Origin: an uncultured delta proteobacterium
GTDB taxonomy: Bacteria > Myxococcota_A > Polyangia > Fen-1088
DNA: 64,000 nt
Assembly (NCBI GenBank): GCA_963767925.1
Contig: CAVYGB010000008.1
Location: forward strand, 3,168,001-3,232,000
Reading direction: 5' to 3'
The position numbers and the translations under genes are program-made. Positions 9,606 to 21,809 of this stretch are shown here, piece by piece. The first letter of the stretch is position 1; each line of letters begins with the position of its first letter. The notes under the pieces are model-generated. The model was not told the DNA's origin. It made no database searches and saw nothing but the letters and a program-made list of their open reading frames with translations.

Positions 9606-9817
9606 ATCAGAGGCGTTTGCCGGCGCAGAATCAGGGTCGCTGCCGCTGGAATCAGGGGACCCCGGCCGCGACCGACCCTACCTGTGCGCTCAGGTACGCT
9701 CGGGGTGCGCCCGAGAGAGCCGCCTCGGGAAGTCGCCGCCGGTCGGAGCCCCCCGCGCCAAGGTTCCCGGTCCCGCGATCTTTCGCTCGACGGTCCAGTC
9801 TGGCAACATAGAGCGCG

Positions 9818-11056
9818 GTGGAAGAGTTGCCGGCGCCGTCATGGGCTCAGCAGCTGGAGGCGTTCGGGGTAGCGCTGGCGGCCTCTCGTCGAATCCTGGT
9901 CGTCGACGACGAGAGAGACAACCTCGAGGTGCTCGCCGCCCTGCTCGAGGACGAATACCAGGTGACGAAGGCCGAGAGCGGCCCCGCCGCCCTCGAGCTG
10001 GTCGAGAAGGGTCCCCCCTTCGCCGTCGTGATCAGCGACCAGCGCATGCCGGGCATGACCGGCATCGAGCTGCTCGCCGAGCTGGAAAAGCGCACGCCCC
10101 AGACGGTGCGCATGATGCTCACCGCCTATTCGGACCTCGGACCGCTCATCGCCGCGGTCAACGACGGCTGCGTGTACCGCTTCTTTCTCAAGCCCTGGAA
10201 CCCGGACGAGATGCGCTCGGCCATCTCGGACGCCATGTGGTTACACTCGGCTCAGGCCGCCCTCAGCCAGCTCGTCGACCTGCTGGGTCAGCGCAAGCGC
10301 GACCTCGAGGCCACCCTGGAGAACCTGCAGCGCGTGCAGGGCGAGCTGCTCGCCGCCGAGCGGATGACGACGGTGGGCCGCTTCTCGGCCGGCATCGCCC
10401 ACAACGTCCGCAACAGCCTGACCGTGATGATGAACCTGCTCGAGCTCGTGCAGCAGAACCCGGTCGGGTCGCGCGTGCTCGCCTCCGCCCAGCGCGCCTT
10501 CCAGACGCTCGACGCCCTCTTGCGCCTGGTCAACGACGTCAACAACCTGGCCCGCGGCCGGCTGCACGCCATCGCCCGCGTGCCGGTGGAGATGGAGCCC
10601 TACCTCGACCAGCTCCTCACCGCCTTCCACGGCGACCCCATGGGCAAAGACCGCTCGGTGGTTGTCACGCGCGACCCCTCCACCCGGGTGTTGCTCATCG
10701 ACCCCGCCCGCATCCGCCAGGCCTTGCTGGCCCTGCTGCGCAGCATCGCCCACACCACCGCCGCCGACGCGCCCATGGAGCTGCTCGTGCACCCGCTCAA
10801 AGATCGCAGCACCTGCTTCGAGGTGATGAGCCCGCCGCGCGGACTGGCCTCCCCGGCCTGGGGCGAGATCGCCACCCGCCGCCTGGCCGCCGCGGCCGCC
10901 CCCACCTTCGCCCAGATCGAGCTCGGCCTCGAGATCAGCCGGGTGGTGGCGGACGCCCACGGGGGCCGGGTGGTGGTGCGGCCTCGCCCCGACAAGCGCG
11001 AGAGCGCGGTCCAGCTCTGGATCACCCAGGCCGATCCAGAGGTCGAGACCCCATGA
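9818..11056 (+). CDS. Hybrid response regulator/histidine kinase (REC + HisKA, degenerate ATPase domain)
   Basis: ILVVDDE, VISDQRMPGMTG, LKPW receiver; H-box AGIAHNVRNSL; N/G boxes eroded. Confidence 0.85.
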   Translation: MEELPAPSWAQQLEAFGVALAASRRILVVDDERDNLEVLAALLEDEYQVTKAESGPAALELVEKGPPFAVVISDQRMPGMTGIELLAELEKRTPQTVRMMLTAYSDLGPLIAAVNDGCVYRFFLKPWNPDEMRSAISDAMWLHSAQAALSQLVDLLGQRKRDLEATLENLQRVQGELLAAERMTTVGRFSAGIAHNVRNSLTVMMNLLELVQQNPVGSRVLASAQRAFQTLDALLRLVNDVNNLARGRLHAIARVPVEMEPYLDQLLTAFHGDPMGKDRSVVVTRDPSTRVLLIDPARIRQALLALLRSIAHTTAADAPMELLVHPLKDRSTCFEVMSPPRGLASPAWGEIATRRLAAAAAPTFAQIELGLEISRVVADAHGGRVVVRPRPDKRESAVQLWITQADPEVETP

Positions 11057-12243
11057 GCCTGCCGCCCCTGCTCCCCCGCGGCGCCTCCACCGCGCCCTAT
11101 CCCCAGCCGCTGCAGATCTGCGTCGGCCCCTCGGCCGAGGGGGTGATGCGGCAGCTCCTCGCCGAAGGCGCCCTGCCCGGCGCGCGCCTCTTCACCTTCG
11201 AGAACGGGAAGGCCCCCAACCCCGGCGGCCCCGCCATCCTGGTGGTCCGACCGGCCGACCTGCGGGGGCCGGAGCGGGACAAGCTGTTCGACCTGGCCCA
11301 CGCCATCAAGCCGGGCCGCCCGATCCTCTACGGCGGCACGGGCAACCGCGACCTGCTGATGGACGCCATCAACACCTGGCGCATCTTCCGGGTGGTCCCC
11401 GAGGGTCCCCGGGCGGTGCTGCTGTCCGACGCCATCCGCAAGGCGCACGAGGCGCTCGAGCTGGCCTGCAGTCTGGAGCTGGGCGCCGCCGATCTGCGCC
11501 GCGACACCGACCGGCTCGAGCAGGCGCTCGGCGATCTGCGGGCCTCCCAGGAGAAGACCCGCCACGCCGAGCGGCTGGCCACCCTGGGCCGCATCACCAA
11601 GAGCCTCATCCCGGTCATCGCCGCCCACCTCGACGCGCTCCAGGACTTCAACGCCCTGGTGGCCGGCGACTCGGCCCGCCGCGACGCCCGCCTCGAGGAG
11701 CTGCTGGGCTACGCCTTCACCGGGATCCGCTCGCTGCACGCCATGCTCGACGAGATCCGCAGCTATGCCGAGAGCCGCCCCGAGGCCTACCAGCTCGTGA
11801 CCGCCGAGCTCGACGATCTCGTCCGCCACGCGGTCGCCTTCAGCCGCTACGATCCCCAGGCGGGTCACTGCCGCATCGTGACCCAGTTCAAGGCGCGGGC
11901 CCGGGTCGAGGTGGACGCCTTCCGCATGCACCAGGTGATCATCAACCTGGTCCGCAACGCGGTCCAGGCCACGCCCGAGGGGGGCGAAATCACGGTGCGC
12001 ACCGGCGCCGACGCCGAGAACCTCATGATCCAGGTTGAGAATAGCGGCGACCCCATCCCTCCCGAGATCCAGAGCCACCTGTTCGAGCCCTTCTTCACCA
12101 CCAGGGGCGACGCCGGGATGGGCCTGGGGCTGTCGATGTGCAAGGCGGCGGTCGAGCGCCACGGCGGCAAGATCAGCTGCGCCAGCGGCCCCGGTCAGCC
12201 CACCTGCTTCACCATCCGCCTGCCCCGGCCCTCGGTCACCTGA
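11053..12243 (+). CDS. Histidine kinase-like protein (degenerate REC, atypical H-box, intact HATPase_c)
   Basis: ATG 11053 overlaps the upstream stop (ATGA); NLVRNAVQA, LFEPFFTT, GMGLGL. Confidence 0.85.
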   Translation: MSLPPLLPRGASTAPYPQPLQICVGPSAEGVMRQLLAEGALPGARLFTFENGKAPNPGGPAILVVRPADLRGPERDKLFDLAHAIKPGRPILYGGTGNRDLLMDAINTWRIFRVVPEGPRAVLLSDAIRKAHEALELACSLELGAADLRRDTDRLEQALGDLRASQEKTRHAERLATLGRITKSLIPVIAAHLDALQDFNALVAGDSARRDARLEELLGYAFTGIRSLHAMLDEIRSYAESRPEAYQLVTAELDDLVRHAVAFSRYDPQAGHCRIVTQFKARARVEVDAFRMHQVIINLVRNAVQATPEGGEITVRTGADAENLMIQVENSGDPIPPEIQSHLFEPFFTTRGDAGMGLGLSMCKAAVERHGGKISCASGPGQPTCFTIRLPRPSVT

Positions 12244-12259: not shown

Positions 12260-13639
<1,380 letters not shown>

Positions 13640-14052
13640 AGACGTAGGTCCTCCGTCTAGGTGGGACTCTGTAGTACAGCGGCGGCCGCGGTTAGGGGAA
13701 GCGAAACTCGCCCCATCCGCAGTACTGCTGTAAGGGTTATGGAACCAGGTCACCAACCCCCGTTTCACGCGGTGACCACCTGCTCCGGCCCGCCCCGTCA
13801 GATGACTTGGACCGGTGCAACCCGGAGAATAGCTCCACCCCGTCCGCCCGCCAAGACCGTAGGAACCCTCACCTAGCCGACATCGCCCTCCTACCTGGCT
13901 TCGCCTCTCTTATCCGACTCACGGATCGCGGGACCTACATCGGGCCCCCCTGAGCGAAACCCGTACGGCAACCGGCCTCCCGCCGGTCCCCGCCCGACCG
14001 GCGGCCCCAGTAATTCCGGTGATTTGCCCCTCACGGCGGCCGTCCCGAGACC

Positions 14053-14067
14053 TGGAACAGCTGTTGC
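14053..14067 (+). promoter_or_regulatory. sigma54 (-24/-12) promoter upstream of the small peptide gene
   Basis: TGGAACAGCTGTTGC = GG-N10-GC, near consensus TGGCAC-N5-TTGC, ~40 nt before the ATG and divergent from an EBP gene. Confidence 0.7.
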
Positions 14068-14106
14068 CAACGAAAGCACGCGACCCGCTTCAACAAGGAG
14101 GGACGC

Positions 14107-14229
14107 ATGCTCAAGAAGATTCTGTTCGTCGCGACTCTGGTTCTTTCGTTTGGCTCTTTCGTGCCCGCCGCCGACGCGGGTCCGTATCCGGATTGCGAGC
14201 TGGAGCCCCACGCGCCCCAATGCTGGTAG
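14107..14229 (+). CDS. Small secreted peptide precursor, 40 aa: MLKKILFVATLVLSFGSFVPAADA|GPYPDCELEPHAPQCW
   Basis: Strong RBS AAGGAGG (14095-14101); classic Sec signal (KK, hydrophobic core, A-D-A site); 16-aa mature part with two Cys; TAG 14227-14229; absent from the ORF track. Confidence 0.8.
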   Translation: MLKKILFVATLVLSFGSFVPAADAGPYPDCELEPHAPQCW

Positions 14230-14251
14230 CCACTCGGCGCTGCGGTCGCGC

Positions 14252-16720
14252 TCAGTTCTGTTTTTGCCACAGAATGGATTCTCGCCCGGAGACTGCGGTA
14301 AGAGGCGAGTCGACGGGATCTTCGATGGGACATCCGTCCGCGCCATGGACACCCACCGCCTCCGTCCGGCCGGTCGGAGTCCGGGATGAGATGTCGATCT
14401 CTGCCCAGCGCGACTCCTCCGAGTGAAAGATCCACAGTCGGTTTTCGCCCGACCAGCGCAATGCGCACCGCTTCGGTGAGATCACGCCGAGATCCACGGT
14501 GCCGCCATCCCGAAGAAGGACGACACCGAGTCGTAGCCTGGAGCCGACGAGCGAAAAAAATCCGAGTTTTTGACCGCTCGGCGAGAACCCGGCCACCCAC
14601 CATGCTCGATGGCCCAGGTTCAGCGGGCGGCAGCGCAGCTCCGGGCTCAGCTCGCAGAACCGCAGGTCTTTCGTGGCACCGTCGATGAACGCGAATGCGC
14701 GCCCATCGGGCCTGAACACCGGCTGGTGATGGCGGGGCCCATCCGTCAGGCGGCGATACAGACCACTGGGCTCGCTGTAGAGCCCGATGACGCTTCGGCC
14801 GCCAGGAAAATTCTCCTCGACCAGAACATTGCCCTCGACCGGGGCCGACATGCGCAGGAAATCTCCACTGCGAGCCAGCTCCCGCTTGGTTCCGTCGAGC
14901 CCTCGGCCGAACAGAATGCCCCAGCGACGGTGCGTCACGAACGATAATCCCCGTGCGCTCTCGGCGAGATGGGCGAAGTTCAGCTCACCCATGTGAGCCC
15001 GCCGTCGGACAGACTCATCTGCTCGCAGCTCCAGCAAGTCGGCGGGGCCCTCGGCGGGGGCGTGGATGAGCAGGAGCCCCCCTCGTTCGGCGAACTGTGC
15101 ACTCACGACGGGGGTGTTCAGCCGGTACTTCCTGGTGAGGCTCAAAGATGGAAACTCGTAGATCGTGACGAGGCCTCCGTCTGGAGCGCGATGGAGAGTG
15201 GCGATCCTGTCTCCCGCCTTGTTCACCGCAATGGACGACAGCAAGTGATCCAGCTCGGCCACCTCGGGCAACAGCGCTGAGAAGCCCTGGTCTCCAACGA
15301 CACCAACCCGACGCGAGTCATGGACATAGATGATCTCCTGTCCGGCAGGGTGCCACTGCGGCAGGTACCCACTCGTGAGGAGACGCGCCTCGCTTCCGTC
15401 CGGGTTTGGAGAAAGCATGAGTCTGACCTGGCCAACCGAGGCGCCCACACTGAAGGCCAATCTTCGTCCATCTGGCGAGGTCGCCGGGCAGGCGTAGGCG
15501 TAGGTCTCAGGCAAGATTCTCCAGGGGCGCGTCTGCCCGGTGTCGACGGACACCTCGACCGGCGAGGGCGGCGAGCCCCAGATGACCCGCAAGGTTTTTC
15601 CGTCGGAAGAAGGCGAGAGGCAGCGGACCGCTCCCGGCCACTTGATCACAGGCGTGGCCGTGTGGGTCCAGTCCTCGGGCGTGCCGACGAGGCGCGGGCG
15701 CAGCACGTCCTTCCCCGGGCGGCTCAGGTAGAAGGCCCCGGCGGTGGCCAGGCCGGCCAGGACCAGGCCGGCGGCCAGGCCCCACTTGCCGGCGCGCAGC
15801 GCCCCGAGGACGGTCACATACCGGCCGACCGAGGCGCGATCGAACTGGCGGATCACCTCCATCGCGGTCTGGGGGCGGCGGGGGGCGAGGTCGTCGAGGC
15901 AGGCGCCGCACAGGTGAGCCATCTGGCGCAGGCGGCGGGGGCTCGCGCGGTCGACGGGCGGCTTGAGGAAGCGCCCCCGCTTGGTGGTGTCCCACTCCGG
16001 CCGGCGGCTGAAGAAGATCTCGTGCAGGATCACGCCGAGCGAGAACACGTCGGAGGCCATCGAGGCGTCGCCGCCGAGCGAGACCTCCGGGGCCATGTAG
16101 GCCGGCGTTCCGACGGCGCCGCTGTAGCCGCTCACGAAGGTGCCCTGGCCGGGAGCCACCGCGAGGCCGAAGTCGGTGAGCACGAGGCGGCCGTCTTCCA
16201 TGCGGAGGACGTTGTCGGGCTTGACGTCGCGGTGAATGAGGCCGGCGGCGTGGATGGCGGCGAGGCCCTGGACCACCGCCCGGGCGTCGGCGATCCGCTC
16301 CTCGAAGGTACGATCCGGGCCGGCCTCCTTGAGGCGCTGGCGGAGCGAGCCGCCGCTGGCGTACTCCATCGAGAGGAAGCGGTAGCCGCCCGCCTCACCG
16401 GCGTCGAACACCCGGCAGACGTTGGGGTGGATGATCTGGCGGGCATGGCGCAGCTCGCTGCCGACGATCTCCTGCCAGCGATCGTCCGAGGCGATCTCCG
16501 GCTTGAAGACCTTGAGCGCCACCAGCGAGCGCGAAACCCGGTCGTCGGCCTCCAAAACCACCCCGGTGGCGCCCTTGCCGAGCACCCGGCGGATCTGGAA
16601 ACGCCCGGCCAGCACCGAGCCGGGCTCGAGCTGAACCACGCTCTCGCGCAGGAGCATCGCCCCTCCGGCGGCCGTCGCCTCGTCAGTCCCGCCCCTCGTC
16701 GACCAGTCAGACCGTGCCAA
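14252..16720 (-). CDS. Membrane Hanks-type Ser/Thr kinase with extracytoplasmic TolB/PD40-like beta-propeller
   Basis: LGKGATG, VALK, HRDVKPDN, DFG, GTPAYMAPE, DVFSLG; TM WGLAAGLVLAGLATAGAFYL; SPDG/RPDG/SPSG repeats; TTG start preceded by AGGAG. Confidence 0.93.
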   Translation of the reverse strand: MARSDWSTRGGTDEATAAGGAMLLRESVVQLEPGSVLAGRFQIRRVLGKGATGVVLEADDRVSRSLVALKVFKPEIASDDRWQEIVGSELRHARQIIHPNVCRVFDAGEAGGYRFLSMEYASGGSLRQRLKEAGPDRTFEERIADARAVVQGLAAIHAAGLIHRDVKPDNVLRMEDGRLVLTDFGLAVAPGQGTFVSGYSGAVGTPAYMAPEVSLGGDASMASDVFSLGVILHEIFFSRRPEWDTTKRGRFLKPPVDRASPRRLRQMAHLCGACLDDLAPRRPQTAMEVIRQFDRASVGRYVTVLGALRAGKWGLAAGLVLAGLATAGAFYLSRPGKDVLRPRLVGTPEDWTHTATPVIKWPGAVRCLSPSSDGKTLRVIWGSPPSPVEVSVDTGQTRPWRILPETYAYACPATSPDGRRLAFSVGASVGQVRLMLSPNPDGSEARLLTSGYLPQWHPAGQEIIYVHDSRRVGVVGDQGFSALLPEVAELDHLLSSIAVNKAGDRIATLHRAPDGGLVTIYEFPSLSLTRKYRLNTPVVSAQFAERGGLLLIHAPAEGPADLLELRADESVRRRAHMGELNFAHLAESARGLSFVTHRRWGILFGRGLDGTKRELARSGDFLRMSAPVEGNVLVEENFPGGRSVIGLYSEPSGLYRRLTDGPRHHQPVFRPDGRAFAFIDGATKDLRFCELSPELRCRPLNLGHRAWWVAGFSPSGQKLGFFSLVGSRLRLGVVLLRDGGTVDLGVISPKRCALRWSGENRLWIFHSEESRWAEIDISSRTPTGRTEAVGVHGADGCPIEDPVDSPLTAVSGRESILWQKQN

Positions 16721-16812
16721 CGCTTCTCCTCATGGGCCCCCGCTGCCCGGGCAGATTATCACGTCCCCCCGGCGGCCCGGCGAAGCGGCCCGCGCCTCGT
16801 GCGCGGGGTCGT

Positions 16813-17142
16813 TCAGGTCAACTCTGTGTTCGGAGCGACGGGCCGGTCGCCGTCCTGGAGCAGGACGAAGCGCTCGTAGCGGAGGCGGAAGGCGCCCCCC
16901 TTGAATCGCTGCAGGGCCCAGTCCATGGCGTCCTCGAGGGTGTCGAAGATGGCGATGGGGCGGGCGCGCGCCCCGGGCGTCACGTCGTCGGGGAAGATGG
17001 CGAAGCAGCAGTCGACGAGATCCTCGCCGTCGTCGGGCGCGCCCTCCACGACCGAGCGGATCGCTCGGGCCGGCTCGGACGGGGCCGGCTCGAGGGGTGG
17101 ATCGAACAGCGGCTCGGGCGGTCTCAGGCGTCGTTTGTCCAT
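16813..17142 (-). CDS. Small hypothetical protein (109 aa), co-oriented upstream of the kinase
   Basis: ATG 17142; globular-looking core (CCFAIFPDD...PIAIFDTLEDAMDWALQRF). Confidence 0.6.
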   Translation of the reverse strand: MDKRRLRPPEPLFDPPLEPAPSEPARAIRSVVEGAPDDGEDLVDCCFAIFPDDVTPGARARPIAIFDTLEDAMDWALQRFKGGAFRLRYERFVLLQDGDRPVAPNTELT

Positions 17143-17154
17143 GGGGAGGCCTTC

Positions 17155-17170
17155 AGCAAGGAACGATCCG
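17155..17170 (-). promoter_or_regulatory. Possible sigma54-type promoter for the small gene and kinase
   Basis: Minus strand CGGATCGTTCCTTGCT = GG-N10-GC; good -12 element, weak -24 element. Confidence 0.4.
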
Positions 17171-17358
17171 CCCGACAGCCCCGGACTTGCAGGGGGCGAG
17201 ACCCGGCGAGACGGCCCCGGATCCGTGACTGGGGCCGCGGGATACGTGACTCGACTCGAGGACACCCCTGGCGCCCCCGGGGTCCGAGGCCATTTTGGGT
17301 GCTAGAGTGCCGGAATGACGGTCCGCGTCCTCGAACTTCGACCGTCGCCGCGACTGTC

Positions 17359-18771
17359 ATGGAAGAGCTGACGACCCAGGACCAGGTGAGCCGCCGCCCC
17401 CCAGACCAGGTGGAGATGGCCGTCCTCCTGGTGCTCGGCCCCCTGGAGGGACCCGGGCGGGCCCTGGGGATGATCCGGCTGCCGGCCGAGCTGGAGATCG
17501 GACGGGGCGAGCCCCGGGTGGGCCCCGACCGGTGGCAGATCGACGACGGAACGGTATCCCGGCGCCACGCCGTCGTCCGGCGCGAGGCCGGCGCCTACCT
17601 CCTCGAGGACAGCGGCAGCCGCAACGGGACATGGCTGAGCGGCGTGGTGCTGCGGAACGAGCGGGCCCGCCTGGGCAACGGGGCCCTGATCGTGCTGGGC
17701 TCCGAGGTGGCGGCCTTCCGCCGGATGAACGAGGAGCAGCTGGCGGCCATCGTCGCCGAGCAGGAGCGGCCGCTGGGGCCGGTGCCGACCGCCTCCCCGG
17801 TCCTGGCGGAGGGGCTGCGCCGGCTGCGCATCCTGGCCGGGACCGACCGGCCGGTCCTCCTGGCCGGGGAGACCGGCACGGGCAAGGAGGTCTACGCCCG
17901 GGCGGTGCACGATCTAAGCGGGCGGCGCGGCCCCTTCATCGCCCTCAACTGCGCCAGCTTCAACCGGGAGCTGTTCGAGAGCCACCTGTTCGGCTACCGG
18001 CGCGGCAGCCACTCACAGGCCCGCGAGGATCACCCCGGGGTCCTGGCCAGCGCCGAGGGGGGGACGGTCTTTCTCGACGAGATCGGCGAGATGGAGCCCA
18101 CTCTGCAGACCAAGCTGCTCCGCTTCCTGCAGGACAAGACCTTCCTCGGCCTCGGCTTCACCCGGCCCCGCCAGGCCGACGTGCGGATCATCGCCGCCAC
18201 CCAGTCGCCGCAGACAACCTTGCGCGGGGACATCCTGGGCCGGCTCGGCGCCGACCCCGTGGTGTTGCCCGCGCTCCGGCGCCGGCGCGAGGACATCCCC
18301 GCCCTCTGCCGCCACTTCCTGCGCTGCCGGCCCGGCGGCGGCGACGTCCGGAGCGTCGACCGGGCCGCCTGCTTCGCCCTGTGCCTGTACGCCTGGCCCC
18401 GCAACATCCGCGAGCTGGAGGCCACCCTGGGCGAGGGGGCCCTGTCGGCCGCCGAACGCGGCGCCACCCGGATCGAGCTGCCGGATCTGCCCATGCGCAT
18501 CCGGGAGCTGGTCCGGCGGGGTCCCGACGCCGACGAGGAGACCGAGCCGGCCGGGCGTGCGCCCGCCCCCACGGACACGCCCCCCGCCACCCGCCGCGAG
18601 CGGCCCACCCGGGCCGAGCTGGAGGAGCTTTTGCGCCAGCACCACGGCCACGTGCCGGCGGTGGCCCGCCAGCTCGAACGGCGGCGCGAGCTGGTCTGGC
18701 GATGGTGTCGCCTCGACGGCCTCGACCCGAACGCCTTCAAGGACATCCGATCCGCCCTGAGGCCCCGCTGA
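17359..18771 (+). CDS. Second FHA-domain sigma54-type AAA+ enhancer-binding protein (EBP2)
   Basis: ATG 17359; FHA (IGR, VSRRHA, GSRNGT); GETGTGKE, TVFLDEIG, WPRNIREL; HTH; GAFTGA loop reads GSHSQA. Confidence 0.9.
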   Translation: MEELTTQDQVSRRPPDQVEMAVLLVLGPLEGPGRALGMIRLPAELEIGRGEPRVGPDRWQIDDGTVSRRHAVVRREAGAYLLEDSGSRNGTWLSGVVLRNERARLGNGALIVLGSEVAAFRRMNEEQLAAIVAEQERPLGPVPTASPVLAEGLRRLRILAGTDRPVLLAGETGTGKEVYARAVHDLSGRRGPFIALNCASFNRELFESHLFGYRRGSHSQAREDHPGVLASAEGGTVFLDEIGEMEPTLQTKLLRFLQDKTFLGLGFTRPRQADVRIIAATQSPQTTLRGDILGRLGADPVVLPALRRRREDIPALCRHFLRCRPGGGDVRSVDRAACFALCLYAWPRNIRELEATLGEGALSAAERGATRIELPDLPMRIRELVRRGPDADEETEPAGRAPAPTDTPPATRRERPTRAELEELLRQHHGHVPAVARQLERRRELVWRWCRLDGLDPNAFKDIRSALRPR

Positions 18772-18932
18772 CTGCCAGCCGGTCGGGCGCACGAGCTAGC
18801 ACGACGCGCGTGTGACAGCGCTGCCGCGATGACCGCCTGTTTTCCGTCGCTCCGGGAGACGAGATCGCGGCCACCCCGACGGAGAGCGTTGGCTCCCGGT
18901 TTGCTTTGTGCGCTGGGCTGGAGGTGGAGGAG

Positions 18933-19457
18933 ATGCTCGTTTCCAGCCCCGACCCCGTCCCCGTCGACTTCGCCGCGGCGGTGTTGTCGCTCGCCAGGCC
19001 ACTTTATTCGCGTGCGATGTCACTGGAGCGCTCGGCGGAGGACGCCGAGGACCTGACCCAGGACACGTTCGAGCGGGCCTTGCGGAACCTTCACCAGTTC
19101 CAGCCGGGCACCAACCTCCGGATGTGGCTTTTCCGCATCATGTACAACCTGTTCGTCGACAGGCGCCGCCGGCGCCAGGCCGAGGCCCGCAACGACAGCC
19201 TCGACGCCGCCGACCTGGCTGCGCCGGAGCCGGATTCCCTCGAGCCCTGGGAGCAGATCGACCACGACAAGGTGGCAGCCACCCTGGCCGGGCTCGACCC
19301 GCAGTTCCGGGACGTGCTGGAGCTGCACCTGGTCCCCCACACCTACCGTGAGATCGGCGCCACACTCGGGATCCCGCCGGGCACGGTGGGGACCCGCCTG
19401 CTGCGGGCCCGGCACAAGCTCCGCAGCATCCTGGCCCCGATGGCCGCCGTCATGTGA
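18933..19457 (+). CDS. ECF sigma-70 factor
   Basis: GGAGG RBS; DAEDLTQDTF, WLFRIMYNLF, YREIG, GTVGTRLLRAR. Confidence 0.92.
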   Translation: MLVSSPDPVPVDFAAAVLSLARPLYSRAMSLERSAEDAEDLTQDTFERALRNLHQFQPGTNLRMWLFRIMYNLFVDRRRRRQAEARNDSLDAADLAAPEPDSLEPWEQIDHDKVAATLAGLDPQFRDVLELHLVPHTYREIGATLGIPPGTVGTRLLRARHKLRSILAPMAAVM

Positions 19458-19492: not shown

Positions 19493-21220
19493 CTACGGCG
19501 CCAGGTATTCGTCGGCGCCGCAGTCGCTGCGGGTGCCGTTGGGCGGGCGGGCCTCGCCGTCGATGTCGTCGGCCGGCATGTCGGAGCTCGACATCGCGTC
19601 CTGGCAGGGCGCGCCCTCGGTGAGGTGGTAGGCCCGGGTGGTGGAGAAGCGTGGATCCACGCCCTCTCTCCCGCTGGGCTCCATGCAGTTGAAGGAGTTG
19701 AGCCCGAGGTTGTTGAACAGCAACACGCCGATCAGGCTCTGGTTGGTCGAGTTGCAGACCACCCCCGCCTCGTTGTTGTCGACGACCGTGTTGGCTCGAA
19801 AACGTCCGTTGCGCCCGCCGCCGGGCGTACCCAGGAAGACGCCGCCGAAGCGGGTGGGGCCCACCGAGCCGAGCCCGTTCTTGGCGAACACGCTGTTGGT
19901 GATGTCGAAGGTGGCGCCGTTGGCGATGCGGAGCCCGCCCTCCCGGTTGAGCTCGACGATCACGCGGTTGAGCTGAACCGTCGACCCGCCGTCGACGACG
20001 ATCCCGGTCTGGTTGCCGGTGACCTTGAGGCCGCGGATGTGGAGGTTGCCCGAGCCGATCTGGACTCCTATCTCGGAGGGCGAGGTGATGGTCGCGCCCT
20101 CCTGGCCAACGATTGTGATCTGGGCGCCCGAGGCCTCGATCTCCAGCTCCGACAGGGGCTGCGGTCCCCGGAGGCGGATCATGCGGCGGTTGGCCGCCAC
20201 GGCGCCCAGGGCGGCCTGCGGCTCGCAGAAGGGCATCGCGAAGCGCCCCTCGCCCCCGTTCATCGAGCAGGGGGTGGCGTTCTGCACGTAGATGGTCTCG
20301 TCGTCGCGCGCGCAGCGGCCGTCCCGGGGGAACAGGCAGATGCCCGGCTTGTCCCCGTCCCGCTCCTTGCACTCGGCGTCCCGGGTGCAGCCGACACATT
20401 CGTTGTCCTCGCAGATGGGGCTGCTGTCCGCCTTGCAGTCGGTGCTGACCCCGCACTGGACGCAGCTTCCGCCCGGCAAGCAGATCGGCAGGGCGTTGCT
20501 CGTCTTCTGGGCGCAGGCGGCGTTGCCGCCCCCCTCGTCGCAGGCCACGCAGGCGCCCGCGGCGCACAGGGGCTGATCGGCGGACTTGCAATCGCCGTGG
20601 CCCTGGCACTCGACGCACACGTTGTCCGTCGTGCAAAACGGTCGGGCGGTGGGGCAATCAACGGCCGCCAGGCACTCCACGCAGGTCCGGGCCTCGGTGC
20701 ACCGGCGCTTCTCGCTCGGGCAATGCATGTCCACCGTGCAGGCCACGCAGGTGTTCTCGAAGCACTGCGAGGTGCTGCCCGCGCAGTGGCTGTTCTCCGA
20801 GCAGGTCCCGGGCGCGTCGGGGGGCGTGTCGGGGGGCGCATCCGGGCCGGGGACGGGGATGCCCGGGTCGCCGGGGTCGACGGCGGCGTCCCCGTCCCCG
20901 CTGCCGCTGCCGTTGCCGTTGCCGTTGCCCGGCGGGTTCGCGCCGCCGTCGCCGGCCGGCATGCCCCCGGTGCCGTCGATGCGAGGGCCTCCCTCGGGCG
21001 AGGAGCCAGGTCCGCCCGGCATCCGCTCGCACTTGTGCCGAGCCATGTTGCAGGAATAGCCGGCGCCGCACTCGACGCTGGCCACGCAGGTGCTCGGATC
21101 GTCCCGGGTCCCGCAGGCCAGCGAGAGCAGCAGGGCCCAGCCGACGGCCGTCGCTGTCGCGGTCCAGGCCGGGCGAGCGGTGACGTGCGGAGCATCGGAT
21201 CGCGGTCCTGGTTGAGCCAT
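19493..21220 (-). CDS. Cys-rich surface lipoprotein with right-handed beta-helix C-terminus
   Basis: LLLSLAC lipobox; repeated CVxCxxxxxC units; N/G-rich beta-helix; ends DIDGEARP...DCGADEY; start uncertain. Confidence 0.75.
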   Translation of the reverse strand: MAQPGPRSDAPHVTARPAWTATATAVGWALLLSLACGTRDDPSTCVASVECGAGYSCNMARHKCERMPGGPGSSPEGGPRIDGTGGMPAGDGGANPPGNGNGNGSGSGDGDAAVDPGDPGIPVPGPDAPPDTPPDAPGTCSENSHCAGSTSQCFENTCVACTVDMHCPSEKRRCTEARTCVECLAAVDCPTARPFCTTDNVCVECQGHGDCKSADQPLCAAGACVACDEGGGNAACAQKTSNALPICLPGGSCVQCGVSTDCKADSSPICEDNECVGCTRDAECKERDGDKPGICLFPRDGRCARDDETIYVQNATPCSMNGGEGRFAMPFCEPQAALGAVAANRRMIRLRGPQPLSELEIEASGAQITIVGQEGATITSPSEIGVQIGSGNLHIRGLKVTGNQTGIVVDGGSTVQLNRVIVELNREGGLRIANGATFDITNSVFAKNGLGSVGPTRFGGVFLGTPGGGRNGRFRANTVVDNNEAGVVCNSTNQSLIGVLLFNNLGLNSFNCMEPSGREGVDPRFSTTRAYHLTEGAPCQDAMSSSDMPADDIDGEARPPNGTRSDCGADEYLAP

Positions 21221-21809
21221 GGCGGCCGAATCATGACGCGATTCGCTCCCGCGGCCAAGACCCCATTGGCTCTGTCGTCGACGCACTGGGCTCCGTCCGC
21301 TCTGGCGCCACAAAAGAAACGGCCGACGCCTGGATCGACGTCGGCCGCAACCCCGAGATCGGCTTTTTTCGACGACCTTGCCCGCCTCGCCACCCTCCCC
21401 GCCGCCGCCTCGTGACCTCCCACCGACCCGGAGCTCGAGACATTTCGCGGGAGCCCCGCTGAACGCCATCGCCTCCCACCCTCCCCGCCGCCCACCCCAT
21501 GACCTGCTCCCGGGAGGGGCCCTGACCCGCCCTCGCCGCTATCTGGCTGCCCCTGTCTTTGCCTGTCTCTGTCGCCTGCCTCGGTTCCTGTCTCGAGCAG
21601 GCCCGTCTCGTTACCCATCCACCCCGCCGTGCCCGCCCTCTCCCGCCACCGTGCCCACCATCGTATCTAGCGGAGCTCCCGCGACGGGGGGGTTAAACTT
21701 GGGTAATCCTCCGGTTAACCGAGGGGTTCGGGCGCGGTACGCCGGGGCTAGCTACACTTGGAGGAGCGTCTGTCGATGGCCGGCGCTGTCACGTGACAAC
21801 TCGTGCTGG

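Follow-up and report, generated by a model that had tools for sequence, protein, structure and literature searches.

A GC-poor block spanning a small peptide gene and the sensor of a receptor kinase: a candidate ligand-and-pocket module in Polyangia

Why should a small peptide gene and the sensor-coding part of the kinase gene converging on it share a composition that sets them apart from their surroundings? This question is raised by a locus within a 64,000-nucleotide stretch of DNA from an uncultured delta proteobacterium of the Polyangia, referred to here as the window. According to the original prediction, peptide gene and sensor form a low-GC block serving as a swappable specificity cassette, whose two parts are exchanged or diversify together in the manner of agr or com specificity groups. 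The prediction started from five hand counts of GC in 60-nt lines (30, 34, 34, 48, and 45), all of which were matched exactly on recount. The features needed for a closer analysis are the following:

14107..14229, + strand: peptide precursor gene, an ORF of 40 residues, MLKKILFVATLVLSFGSFVPAADAGPYPDCELEPHAPQCW
14252..16720, - strand: receptor Ser/Thr kinase gene, 822 codons, TTG start
15983..16597, - strand: cytoplasmic Hanks-type kinase domain, residues 42-246, Pfam PF00069 (Pkinase), E 1.5e-40
15722..15784, - strand: single membrane helix, residues 313-333, hydropathy maximum
14255..15688, - strand: predicted periplasmic all-beta sensor of beta-propeller architecture with six Cys, residues 345-822, AlphaFold2

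Composition of the low-GC block

Total GC was 0.62-0.66 over approximately 13600-15600 and 0.72-0.76 on either side, the genome mean being 0.712. Sliding GC3 analysis of the kinase ORF (14252..16720, - strand) revealed a clear step, with values of 0.88-0.98 for codons 1-400 and of 0.66-0.82 for codons 401-822; the best single split, at codon 418, separates 0.93 from 0.73 (z = 7.7). With a GC3 of about 0.75 in the sensor and of 0.75 in the peptide gene, compared to about 0.94 in the kinase domain, both parts of the block are indeed low in GC. The shift also lies inside one ORF as assumed, but not at the boundary between membrane helix and sensor: the helix occupies codons 313-333, whereas the GC3 step is found near codon 400 (window positions of about 15500-15550), approximately 70-80 codons into the sensor.

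All 16 amino acids represented by a sufficient number of codons show the GC3 drop, and in three conservation classes GC3 was 0.73, 0.74, and 0.76 for the propeller and 0.93, 0.96, and 0.94 for the kinase domain, which argues for a regional effect and not for one of amino-acid make-up. Among the 44 Ser/Thr kinases of this genome that have a C-terminal region of at least 250 codons, the GC3 difference has a median of 0.01 and a 95th percentile of 0.095; the gene examined here shows the maximum (0.204) and is the only one to reach 0.18. When all long open frames of the genome were ranked, the step took place 109 of 1605 and is therefore clear, not extreme, on a scale that is crude even after trimming of the called frames, the comparison among the kinases being the cleaner control.

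The same GC3 deficit is present in 32 of 34 orthologs and also in tandem paralogs without a peptide gene of their own, and seven dispersed paralogs of the same architecture have no step (-0.04 to +0.01). In the genome from the same genus, the propeller is even poorer in GC3 (0.62) than that of the window. Codons 313-400 are hyperdivergent yet rich in GC3 (0.88-0.98), so that the boundary of composition (near codon 400) and that of divergence (codon 313) are about 250 nt apart. This offset, together with the deficit in nearly all orthologs, implies that the low GC3 does not stem from a single recent import. Gene conversion from a paralog was considered as a cause of the high GC3 of the kinase domain and rejected, as the best in-genome paralog reaches at most 36% identity in the kinase part.

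Receptor, peptide and neighbouring activators

The kinase carries the motifs of Hanks-type Ser/Thr kinases, namely VALKVFK at residue 67, HRDVKPDN at 163, DFG at 183, and APE at 210; in the public gene call of the same protein an ATG 21 codons later serves as start, resulting in 801 aa. The AlphaFold2 model of its sensor is all-beta with a mean pLDDT of 84.4. The model could be aligned with WD40 propellers (Z 19.9, rmsd 2.9, 238 residues aligned) and, over its residues 3-246, with TolB (Z 19.1, rmsd 3.3, 233 residues aligned), a weak Pfam match was obtained to PD40, and Foldseek returned loose matches only, to double propellers (TM 0.26-0.37). Six Cys of the sensor are invariant in 12 sequences; in a set of 39 sequences, invariance holds for five, the sixth being conserved in at least 90%. 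The Cys, Trp, and Gly positions that define the propeller fold are likewise invariant. Such conserved Cys would fit a periplasmic, disulfide-bonded domain.

The peptide precursor appears to start with a Sec signal peptide (residues 1-24) ending in Ala-Asp-Ala, where the signal-peptidase site was placed by eye following the Ala-x-Ala rule. The predicted mature peptide of 16 residues contains two Cys, spaced by eight residues, and ends in Trp; no Pfam family is matched. That this gene is real, convergent and contiguous with the sensor is supported by the orthologous kinases (defined by a propeller HMM score of at least 369): next to each of the 39 lies a convergent ORF that shares the MLKK-type signal peptide and the two C-terminal Cys, its end falling -27 to +53 nt from the kinase stop. 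The same pattern search found no such ORF beside 31 paralogs, five of which have less than 400 nt of downstream sequence. In public databases, 111 relatives of the peptide, annotated as hypothetical proteins only, keep the signal peptide and the C-terminal Cys pair around loops of 2-8 residues with variable sequence. Within this family the peptide of the window is atypical, with 40 residues, no Ala/Pro-rich linker and a C-x8-C-W end. A search of the protein database with it retrieved only itself, and a profile of the peptides of the other orthologs recovered no 40-residue peptide of the window type. The sequencing runs examined included one soil DNA run with short contigs identical to the window; in the other two, the matches were conserved motifs of other organisms.

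The surroundings of the peptide gene contain these further elements:

14053..14068, + strand: putative sigma-54 type -24/-12 promoter element, TGGAACAGCTGTTGCC, 54 nt before the peptide start codon
14095..14102, + strand: Shine-Dalgarno sequence of the peptide gene, AAGGAGGG; purine-rich GGAG/GGGG boxes occur at the same place in orthologous loci
12260..13768, - strand: FHA-domain sigma-54 activator (AAA+), Pfam FHA 3.2e-15, Sigma54_activat 1.3e-52
17347..18771, + strand: second FHA-domain sigma-54 activator by Pfam, start codon uncertain, divergent from the kinase gene

Sigma-54 promoters are characterized by GG at -24 and GC at -12 in the spacing TGGCAC-N5-TTGC. Judged by its letters, TGGAACAGCTGTTGCC agrees with this consensus, and of 38 orthologous loci, 35 have TGG-N8-TTGC ahead of the peptide gene on its own strand, compared to a mean of 0.54 loci (maximum 5) in shuffled controls and 4 of 38 on the opposite strand. 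RpoN is encoded in the genome, and no sigma-70-like promoter was found. A terminator-like hairpin following the peptide stop (14236-14252) was dismissed, being at chance level (1 found, 0.7 expected). Pfam scans of six ORFs between 12260 and 21469 yielded no known RiPP modifying enzyme, and inspection of ORFs and Pfam matches between 9000 and 21500 did not reveal a gene for a dedicated exporter or outer-membrane channel.

The activator at 12260..13768 and the peptide gene are divergently transcribed; an ortholog of this activator occupies the corresponding position in 37 of 39 loci, the remaining two lacking the flank; the second activator occurs upstream in some orthologous loci only. Both contain the domain of sigma-54 enhancer-binding proteins (PF00158, E 1.3e-52 and 1.6e-45). 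The activator at 12260..13768 is likely to read the phospho-threonine signal of the kinase. The module of propeller kinase, convergent Cys-loop peptide and FHA sigma-54 activator is conserved in one Polyangia family, the only group in which the propeller family was found.

In sigma-54 activators, the GAFTGA loop contacts sigma-54. The activators of the locus carry GAHSEA (12260..13768) and GSHSQA instead, and the orthologs GAHS[QET]A; loops of the GAHS[EQT]A type account for four of 45 such motifs in the genome, 34 other activators having the FTG form. The replacement of GAFTGA in both activators counts against a feedback model involving sigma-54.

Co-divergence, predicted binding and competing explanations

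Comparison with the syntenic locus of the same genus delimits the divergent part of the module:

14129..15774, no strand: hyperdivergent block without blastn similarity to the syntenic same-genus locus, both flanks of which align

The block extends from just past the first signal-sequence codons (14129) to the start of the membrane helix (15774) and thereby spans both the mature peptide and the sensor. By blastn, DNA identity amounts to 84% from the activator outward, to 76% within the kinase domain, and to 70% over the promoter and initial codons of the peptide gene. At the protein level, the kinase domains are 85% and the propellers 37% identical; along the kinase, identity is 0.83-1.0 for residues 16-255 and 0.10-0.60 for residues 316-810. 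In each of 73 close ortholog pairs, the propeller has diverged more quickly than the kinase domain (median path ratio 3.8), and the ratio of 9.5 for the window and its same-genus relative is the highest, synonymous sites being saturated at the distances compared. Similarly, ten window-type proteins have kinase domains with 84-97% and propellers with 35-73% identity (e.g., 97 vs. 66 and 95 vs. 51), at a median path ratio of 6.8. A metagenome scan for strain-level relatives with the kinase domain returned only distant kinases of at most 46% identity.

The assumption that peptide and sensor diversify together is supported by the extent of this block and by the data for genus g2 (12 pairs), in which peptide-core distance follows propeller distance when kinase distance is given (r 0.49, p 0.01) but not kinase distance when propeller distance is given (r -0.12, p 0.69). 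Physical linkage alone could be the source of this signal. The covariation held within g2 but was not specific for the propeller in partial Mantel tests over 34 orthologs, where the peptide core correlates with kinase distance (r 0.24, p 0.006) as well as with propeller distance (r 0.25, p 0.02), a pattern expected from shared ancestry alone.

For the idea that the block is exchanged as a unit, the comparison of kinase and propeller trees was only suggestive. Rates clearly differ between the two domains. A significant conflict was seen in the tandem paralogs, whose within-genome pair is incompatible with the propeller data (p 6e-22) and whose cross-genome pairs are rejected on the basis of the kinase data (p 2e-5 and 3e-4). 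The conflict is weaker in the clade of the window, in which propeller data reject the pair P0114+P0117 of the kinase tree (p 0.007) and kinase data nearly reject the propeller clade holding the window (p 0.055); these clades were picked after the trees had been seen. Incongruence was not detected for one ortholog trio (p 0.35), and the window and its same-genus relative come out as sisters in both domain trees (100 SH-aLRT for the propellers).

A possible contact between the two products was predicted by modeling the propeller of one ortholog, G009, with its mature peptide. This orthologous pair, which stands in for that of the window, reached a score of 0.63 (runs 0.63, 0.65, and 0.60), the best control scoring 0.00; by counts that apply only roughly, since our own alignments were used, this mark is attained by 116 of 157 solved complexes and by 2 of 215 mismatched pairs. 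The runs share at least 44% of contacts at a partner pLDDT of at least 40, a value of about 40 meaning that the fold of the partner itself is uncertain. The confident contacts involve peptide residues 47 and 49-55, i.e., the Cys loop. Variability is higher at the 23 predicted contact positions than elsewhere in propeller residues 140-410 (entropy 2.86 vs. 2.33, reached by 0.0008 of random sets), an excess that weighs less as support since surface positions are more variable in general. Binding of the peptide to the propeller is a prediction of this model.

With moderate confidence, we interpret the GC-poor block as that part of a lineage-specific module of peptide and receptor kinase which encodes ligand and pocket. 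The sigma-54 promoter would drive a small precursor, from which Sec export and signal peptidase would release a short peptide with a C-terminal two-Cys loop probably closed by a disulfide in the periplasm. This loop may bind the beta-propeller ectodomain of the adjoining Hanks-type Ser/Thr kinase, the kinase would phosphorylate a threonine read by the FHA-domain AAA+ activator, and the activator might in turn act on the sigma-54 promoter of the peptide gene, closing a feedback loop whose direction is presumed. As peptide core and pocket are adjacent on the DNA and have to stay matched, they would co-diverge, far faster than the kinase domain, giving rise to specificity variants among close relatives similar to agr or com pherotypes, with low GC3 as a regional companion of this turnover.

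An explanation by weak constraint, in which ectodomain and small ORF drift fast, AT-biased mutation lowers GC3 wherever selection is weak and the peptide is an output of the kinase-activator pathway or an unrelated periplasmic product and not the ligand, seems unlikely to us. It would account for the higher rate of the propeller in every pair, for a GC3 deficit extending to nearly all orthologs and to tandem paralogs lacking the peptide gene, and for the family-wide Mantel result. Yet the positions defining the fold are invariant, and GC3 is as low at conserved as at variable propeller positions, a pattern at odds with site-wise relaxation of selection; the step is absent from dispersed paralogs of this architecture, the peptide gene is retained in all 39 loci and its promoter in 35 of 38, and the predicted complex passes its controls. 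Even less probable appears a horizontal swap, in which the segment from membrane helix to mature peptide was imported from a lower-GC relative, with homologous recombination taking place in the conserved kinase domain at one end and in signal peptide and promoter at the other, the low GC3 being the signature of the donor. Although conserved sequence does border the divergent block at both ends, related alleles poorer in GC3 exist, and kinase and sensor histories are in conflict in the tandem paralogs and in the clade of the window, the sister relationships of both domains, the trio without incongruence and the choice of all clades after inspection of the trees speak against it. So do the offset between the two boundaries and the GC3-rich codons 313-400; moreover, a donor was not found, and the conflict among paralogs may equally be due to gene conversion of kinase domains.

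It is also conceivable, if somewhat unlikely, that the peptide binds the propeller within the periplasm of the cell that makes it and serves as cell-autonomous feedback, braking or latching the kinase instead of diffusing as a signal between cells. In a host with two membranes, a Sec-exported peptide of 16-31 residues stays periplasmic unless it is carried out. Delivery to the periplasm and the lack of an exporter or channel gene in the inspected region are in accordance with such a role, and the binding model is silent on the origin of the peptide. However, an internal ligand would give no obvious reason for fast co-diversification among close relatives, which in known systems goes with discrimination between cells.

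Relation to known systems

Specificity groups of this kind are known from agr (AgrD/AgrC; a system described in PMC6213207) in staphylococci and from the ComC/ComD and ComQXP pherotypes. An agr-type system comprises an AgrB-type processing protein, a thiolactone peptide, a histidine-kinase receptor and a LytTR regulator. The locus described here instead combines a Ser/Thr kinase receptor, neighbouring FHA activators and a precursor with a Sec signal peptide and is not of the agr type. The comparison with agr and com made at the outset proved apt as a way of working and extends to layout only: the peptide gene adjoins its membrane receptor kinase, the hypervariable stretch consists of peptide core and sensor part next to a conserved catalytic part, and the circuit appears to drive its own peptide gene. 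Where these systems have polytopic histidine kinases, the receptor found here belongs to the Hanks-type Ser/Thr kinases and has one membrane helix and a beta-propeller ectodomain, and the relay would run from an FHA-domain AAA+ activator to sigma-54, not through a response regulator, in a two-membraned host. Unlike in agr, there is neither AgrB-type processing nor a thiolactone; the precursor instead carries a Sec signal peptide and probably forms a disulfide loop.

In its architecture of kinase domain, single membrane helix and extracytoplasmic beta-propeller, with a topology deduced from the conserved Cys, the predicted receptor resembles PknD of Mycobacterium tuberculosis, likewise a receptor Ser/Thr kinase, whose sensor is a beta-propeller of six blades (Good et al., 2004; PMC6213207). 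The sensor described here, with approximately 478 residues, is longer than one six-bladed propeller, and a candidate ligand is encoded next door, whereas the passages on PknD considered from the 2018 review name no ligand for its propeller (PMC6213207). As for a short peptide held on a beta-propeller, as seen in the predicted complex, a likeness exists at the level of the fold (8-16% identity) to TolB and WDR5. The structural matches include PDB 3iax, 9uk4, and 2o9k, which we take to represent TolB with a colicin TolB-box peptide and WDR5 with short peptides.

On the side of the activators, FHA-domain sigma-54 enhancer-binding proteins of Myxococcus xanthus were reportedly described by Jelsbak, Givskov and Kaiser in 2005. 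As in those proteins, the FHA domain takes the place of the receiver domain, suggesting input from a Ser/Thr kinase; here, however, kinase, activator, target promoter and product make up one conserved cluster, and GAHS[EQT]A replaces GAFTGA. Full-text literature searches found no description of such a system of peptide and receptor kinase, and the block looks like a so far undescribed peptide-and-receptor signaling pair.

To our knowledge, hardly any ligands of bacterial receptor Ser/Thr kinases are established, apart from cell-wall fragments for PASTA domains. The locus offers a genetically linked candidate ligand together with a predicted contact surface, and its natural series of alleles, with a changing sensor next to an almost invariant kinase domain, makes binding and specificity directly testable. 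We tentatively put forward the possibility that in soil myxobacteria of one Polyangia family a Sec-exported disulfide-loop peptide is the cognate ligand of the eukaryote-like receptor Ser/Thr kinase, signaling through an FHA activator to sigma-54, and that peptide loop and propeller pocket fall into mutually incompatible groups by which cells separate kin from non-kin. If true, this would represent a bacterial counterpart of plant peptide/receptor-kinase signaling and a pherotype system outside two-component signaling. Should the pairs turn out to be specific, two-membraned bacteria would possess a peptide pherotype system that relies on Ser/Thr phosphorylation, FHA domains and sigma-54, a finding with a bearing on kin recognition in social myxobacteria.

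Gene layout and composition of the locus

The host genome measures 9.3 Mb with a GC content of 71%. Positions 12260-18771 of the window hold four genes:

12260..13768, minus strand, FHA-domain sigma-54 activator
14107..14229, plus strand, peptide ORF of 40 codons
14252..16720, minus strand, Ser/Thr kinase of 822 codons, convergent with the small ORF
about 17347..18771, plus strand, second FHA sigma-54 activator

Only 22 nt separate the stop codons of the peptide ORF and the kinase gene. The small ORF, which is preceded by a strong Shine-Dalgarno box, encodes MLKKILFVATLVLSFGSFVPAADAGPYPDCELEPHAPQCW, in which a Sec signal peptide of typical form, terminating in Ala-Asp-Ala, is followed by 16 residues with two Cys. 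The kinase contains a Pfam kinase domain (residues 42-246) with all catalytic motifs intact, one membrane helix (residues 313-333) and, at its C-terminus, an all-beta domain some 478 residues long (AlphaFold2 mean pLDDT 84.4). The model of this sensor domain resembles WD40 propellers (Z 19.9, rmsd 2.9, 238 residues aligned), and its first half resembles TolB (Z 19.1, rmsd 3.3, 233 residues aligned). Response-regulator and histidine-kinase genes at 9775-12243, downstream of the activator, are syntenic with the only other genome of the same genus compared (84% DNA identity) and may share the regulatory neighbourhood of the peptide locus. At the other end, an ECF sigma factor gene (18906..19457) adjoins a gene (19493..21469, minus strand) for a secreted, Cys-rich right-handed beta-helix protein of 658 residues.

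The five spot GC counts of the original prediction were all reproduced exactly. Total GC amounts to 0.62-0.66 from about 13600 to 15600 and to 0.72-0.76 on both flanks. Within the kinase ORF, GC3 is 0.88-0.98 up to codon 400 and 0.66-0.82 thereafter; the step is real, with the best split at codon 418 (z 7.7; 0.93 vs. 0.73 on the two sides), and the peptide gene has a GC3 of 0.75. The shift had been placed near the boundary between membrane helix and sensor, but the GC3 step actually lies 70-80 codons inside the sensor. It is present in all 16 comparable amino acids, and propeller GC3 is alike across classes of conserved and variable positions (0.73, 0.74, and 0.76; kinase domain 0.93-0.96 throughout), which makes it a regional property and contradicts protein composition or site-by-site codon selection as its source. 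Among 44 Ser/Thr kinases of the genome with long C-terminal regions, the median GC3 difference is 0.01 and the window gene shows the maximum (0.204). Since it ranks 109th among all 1605 long open frames of the genome, as delimited by a crude caller, the step is marked, but not unique.

A conserved peptide-kinase-activator module

Searches of relatives, first with the full-length kinase and subsequently with an alignment of propellers, yielded 70 distinct kinase-propeller genes at loci L001-L079. All 39 genes with a propeller HMM score of at least 369, referred to as orthologs, are accompanied by an ORF in convergent orientation that encodes an MLKK-type signal peptide and ends between -27 and +53 nt from the kinase stop. 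The same pattern search found a peptide ORF in none of the 31 lower-scoring paralogs, five of which have too little downstream sequence. In 37 of the 39 loci, an FHA activator is encoded on the same strand as the kinase, 420-600 nt past its stop, the remaining two loci being without flank. Upstream of the peptide gene and on the same strand, the element TGG-N8-TTGC is found in 35 of 38 loci, as compared with a mean of 0.54 loci (maximum 5) in shuffles and 4 on the opposite strand; the window copy is TGGAACAGCTGTTGCC (14053-14068, peptide-gene strand). The small ORF is a genuine gene conserved among relatives, and together with its neighbours it forms a module. The genome also contains rpoN. 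At G000:C8:278763-279240 in this genome, a match to the sigma-54 DNA-binding domain is spread over two open frames that overlap (166 and 55 aa), which may reflect a frameshift or assembly error in rpoN.

The peptide is usually 43-61 residues long; its signal peptide is followed by a linker rich in Ala, Pro and Lys, then by a Gly-aromatic position that is conserved, and at the C-terminus by a Cys-x(2-8)-Cys loop of varying sequence. Peptides with seven and four Cys instead of two occur at L003 (G019:C44, 3958-4140) and L013 (G001:C857, 3467-3646), respectively, and the propellers of these loci are also among the most divergent. A peptide profile search of public data returned 111 small proteins, all annotated as hypothetical and none belonging to a Pfam family; where organism names are given, they are Polyangia, Myxococcales or Deltaproteobacteria. 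Within the host's family, 49 of 89 genomes, representing 9 of 19 genera, contain the propeller family, which was not found in 31 other families of the class (255 genomes searched). One match, G095:C2:629172-630464, contains four in-frame stops (3 TGA, 1 TAG) and is probably a decayed copy.

Divergence and domain histories of the sensor block

Aligned with the syntenic contig of the same-genus genome, the activator and the genes beyond show 84% DNA identity, the kinase domain 76%, and the peptide promoter and first codons 70%. Between 14129 and 15774, a stretch spanning the membrane helix, the propeller and the mature peptide, blastn against this contig found no similarity. The GC-poor block of peptide gene and sensor half is also a hyperdivergent block. 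At the protein level, the kinase domains are 85% and the propellers 37% identical, with the drop at residues 256-330, and the two peptides have only the start of the signal peptide in common, the relative's mature peptide containing four Cys. Other same-genus pairs in the family show 84% vs. 67% and 77% vs. 52% identity for kinase domain and propeller. In maximum-likelihood trees, the window pair has a propeller/kinase path ratio of 9.5, which exceeds that of every other close ortholog pair (73 pairs in all, median 3.8). Eight closer relatives from a large protein database (P0113-P0120) are 85-90% identical to the window protein in the kinase domain and 40-61% in the propeller. Across ten proteins of the window type, kinase domains are 84-97% and propellers 35-73% identical (for example 97 vs. 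66 and 95 vs. 51), with a median path ratio of 6.8 (range 3.6-16.4, 45 pairs).

Of 34 peptide-linked orthologs, 32 have a lower GC3 in the propeller than in the kinase domain (mean difference 0.107), and tandem paralogs beside orthologs are likewise GC3-poorer in the propeller. Seven dispersed paralogs of the same architecture, including one in the window's genome, show no such deficit (-0.04 to +0.01). The latter (L014, G000:C10:1518412-1520826; 855 aa, 32% identity over residues 29-786) has no downstream peptide gene and no GC3 step (0.93 vs. 0.95). A single recent import as the source of low GC3 is contradicted by the recurrence of the deficit in these 32 orthologs and by the offset of about 250 nt between the composition and divergence boundaries; a persistent, locus-bound process fits better. 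Candidate causes are AT-biased mutation outrunning whatever holds GC3 high elsewhere, or loss of GC-biased repair where alleles have become too unlike to recombine. Low GC3 recurs with the locus and does not prove import.

The original prediction had suggested a swappable specificity cassette whose peptide and sensor are exchanged or diversify together. Across the 34 orthologs for which peptide, propeller and kinase domain are all available, distances between peptide cores correlate with those between propellers once the kinase is controlled for (r 0.25, p 0.02) and equally with those between kinase domains once the propeller is controlled for (r 0.24, p 0.006), which reflects no more than shared ancestry. 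Within genus g2 (12 genes), peptide-core distances track those of the propeller (r 0.49, p 0.01) and show no association with those of the kinase domain (r -0.12, p 0.69). Physical linkage would lead to the same pattern, since the peptide gene adjoins the 3′ end of the kinase gene.

Members of g2 carry up to three tandem kinase-propeller genes, only the last copy, adjoining the peptide gene, being the ortholog; arrays are found at L053 (G093:C3:172300-182200), L069 (G082:C507:1900-11300), L015, L062, L063, and L070. Kinase domains of these paralogs cluster within genomes, propellers across genomes. The kinase grouping is rejected by the propeller data (p 6e-22) and the propeller grouping by the kinase data (p 2e-5 and 3e-4), p-values that, like the others for tree groups given here, are generous because all groups were chosen after the trees had been seen. 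Two paralogs in one genome (G082) are separated by 0.024 substitutions per site in the kinase path and 1.0 in the propeller path. The tandem copies undergo concerted evolution of the kinase part only, and their conflicting domain histories mark the kinase/sensor junction as a boundary of recombination or conversion within the family. For the window and its same-genus relative, sisters in both trees, the histories of the two domains agree and rates alone differ. An apparently incongruent trio of orthologs was not rejected by the test (p-AU 0.35). Within the window clade, P0114 groups with P0117 in the kinase tree (98/94) and joins the window protein, P0113 and P0115 in the propeller tree (99/97). 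The former grouping is rejected by the propeller data (p 0.007), and the latter comes close to rejection by the kinase data (p 0.055), so that incongruence here is suggestive. Of the cassette, joint diversification of peptide and sensor as a linked pair is supported, while actual swapping of the block is suggestive at best.

Predicted peptide-propeller contact and a possible feedback circuit

Complex prediction was performed with propeller and mature peptide of the G009 ortholog instead of the window's own atypical peptide, because this mature peptide reaches the 30-residue minimum and its relatives give usable alignments. The model scored 0.63 (runs 0.63, 0.65, and 0.60; best of three controls 0.00); the score mark is attained in 116 of 157 complexes of solved structure, as against 2 of 215 mismatched pairs, counts that serve as a rough guide only, since custom alignments were used. 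At least 44% of the contacts are common to the runs, and the partner's pLDDT of about 40 makes its own fold uncertain. Confident contacts are made by residues 47 and 49-55 of the peptide, which coincide exactly with its Cys loop at the C-terminus, and by propeller residues spread from 148 to 407. The 23 contact positions of the propeller are more variable than the rest of the region in the 39 orthologs (entropy 2.86 vs. 2.33; reached by a fraction of 0.0008 of random position sets), evidence limited by the generally higher variability of surface positions. The model supports a putative binding of the peptide to the propeller in the G009 ortholog.

The most economical reading of the locus, which starts from the observed gene order, promoter and conservation and for which we infer every biochemical step, is a feedback circuit. 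A sigma-54 promoter would drive the gene of a secreted Cys-loop peptide, which would meet the propeller of the receptor kinase; the kinase would signal through phospho-threonine to an FHA activator, which in turn would act back on the sigma-54 promoter of the peptide gene. The GAFTGA loop of such activators contacts sigma-54. Both locus activators (12260-13768 and 17347-18771) and their orthologs in L001-L079 carry GAHS[EQT]A at the expected site, a form seen in 4 of 45 such motifs in the window's genome, 34 being canonical. FHA-bearing sigma-54 activators are reportedly known in Myxococcus xanthus. In a bacterium with two membranes, Sec export leaves a peptide in the periplasm unless it is carried out; as no exporter for the peptide was seen at the locus, the loop may be cell-autonomous.

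Similar to the agr and com pherotype loci, the peptide gene adjoins the receptor gene, and putative ligand and sensor are variable while the catalytic part is conserved. Receptor class, peptide processing and relay all differ, so the locus is not a member of these families. The same receptor architecture is found in PknD, for whose propeller no ligand is named in an extract of a 2018 review (PMC6213207). A full-text literature search did not turn up any comparable peptide-sensing Hanks kinase, and the pairing of peptide and sensor merits experimental follow-up.
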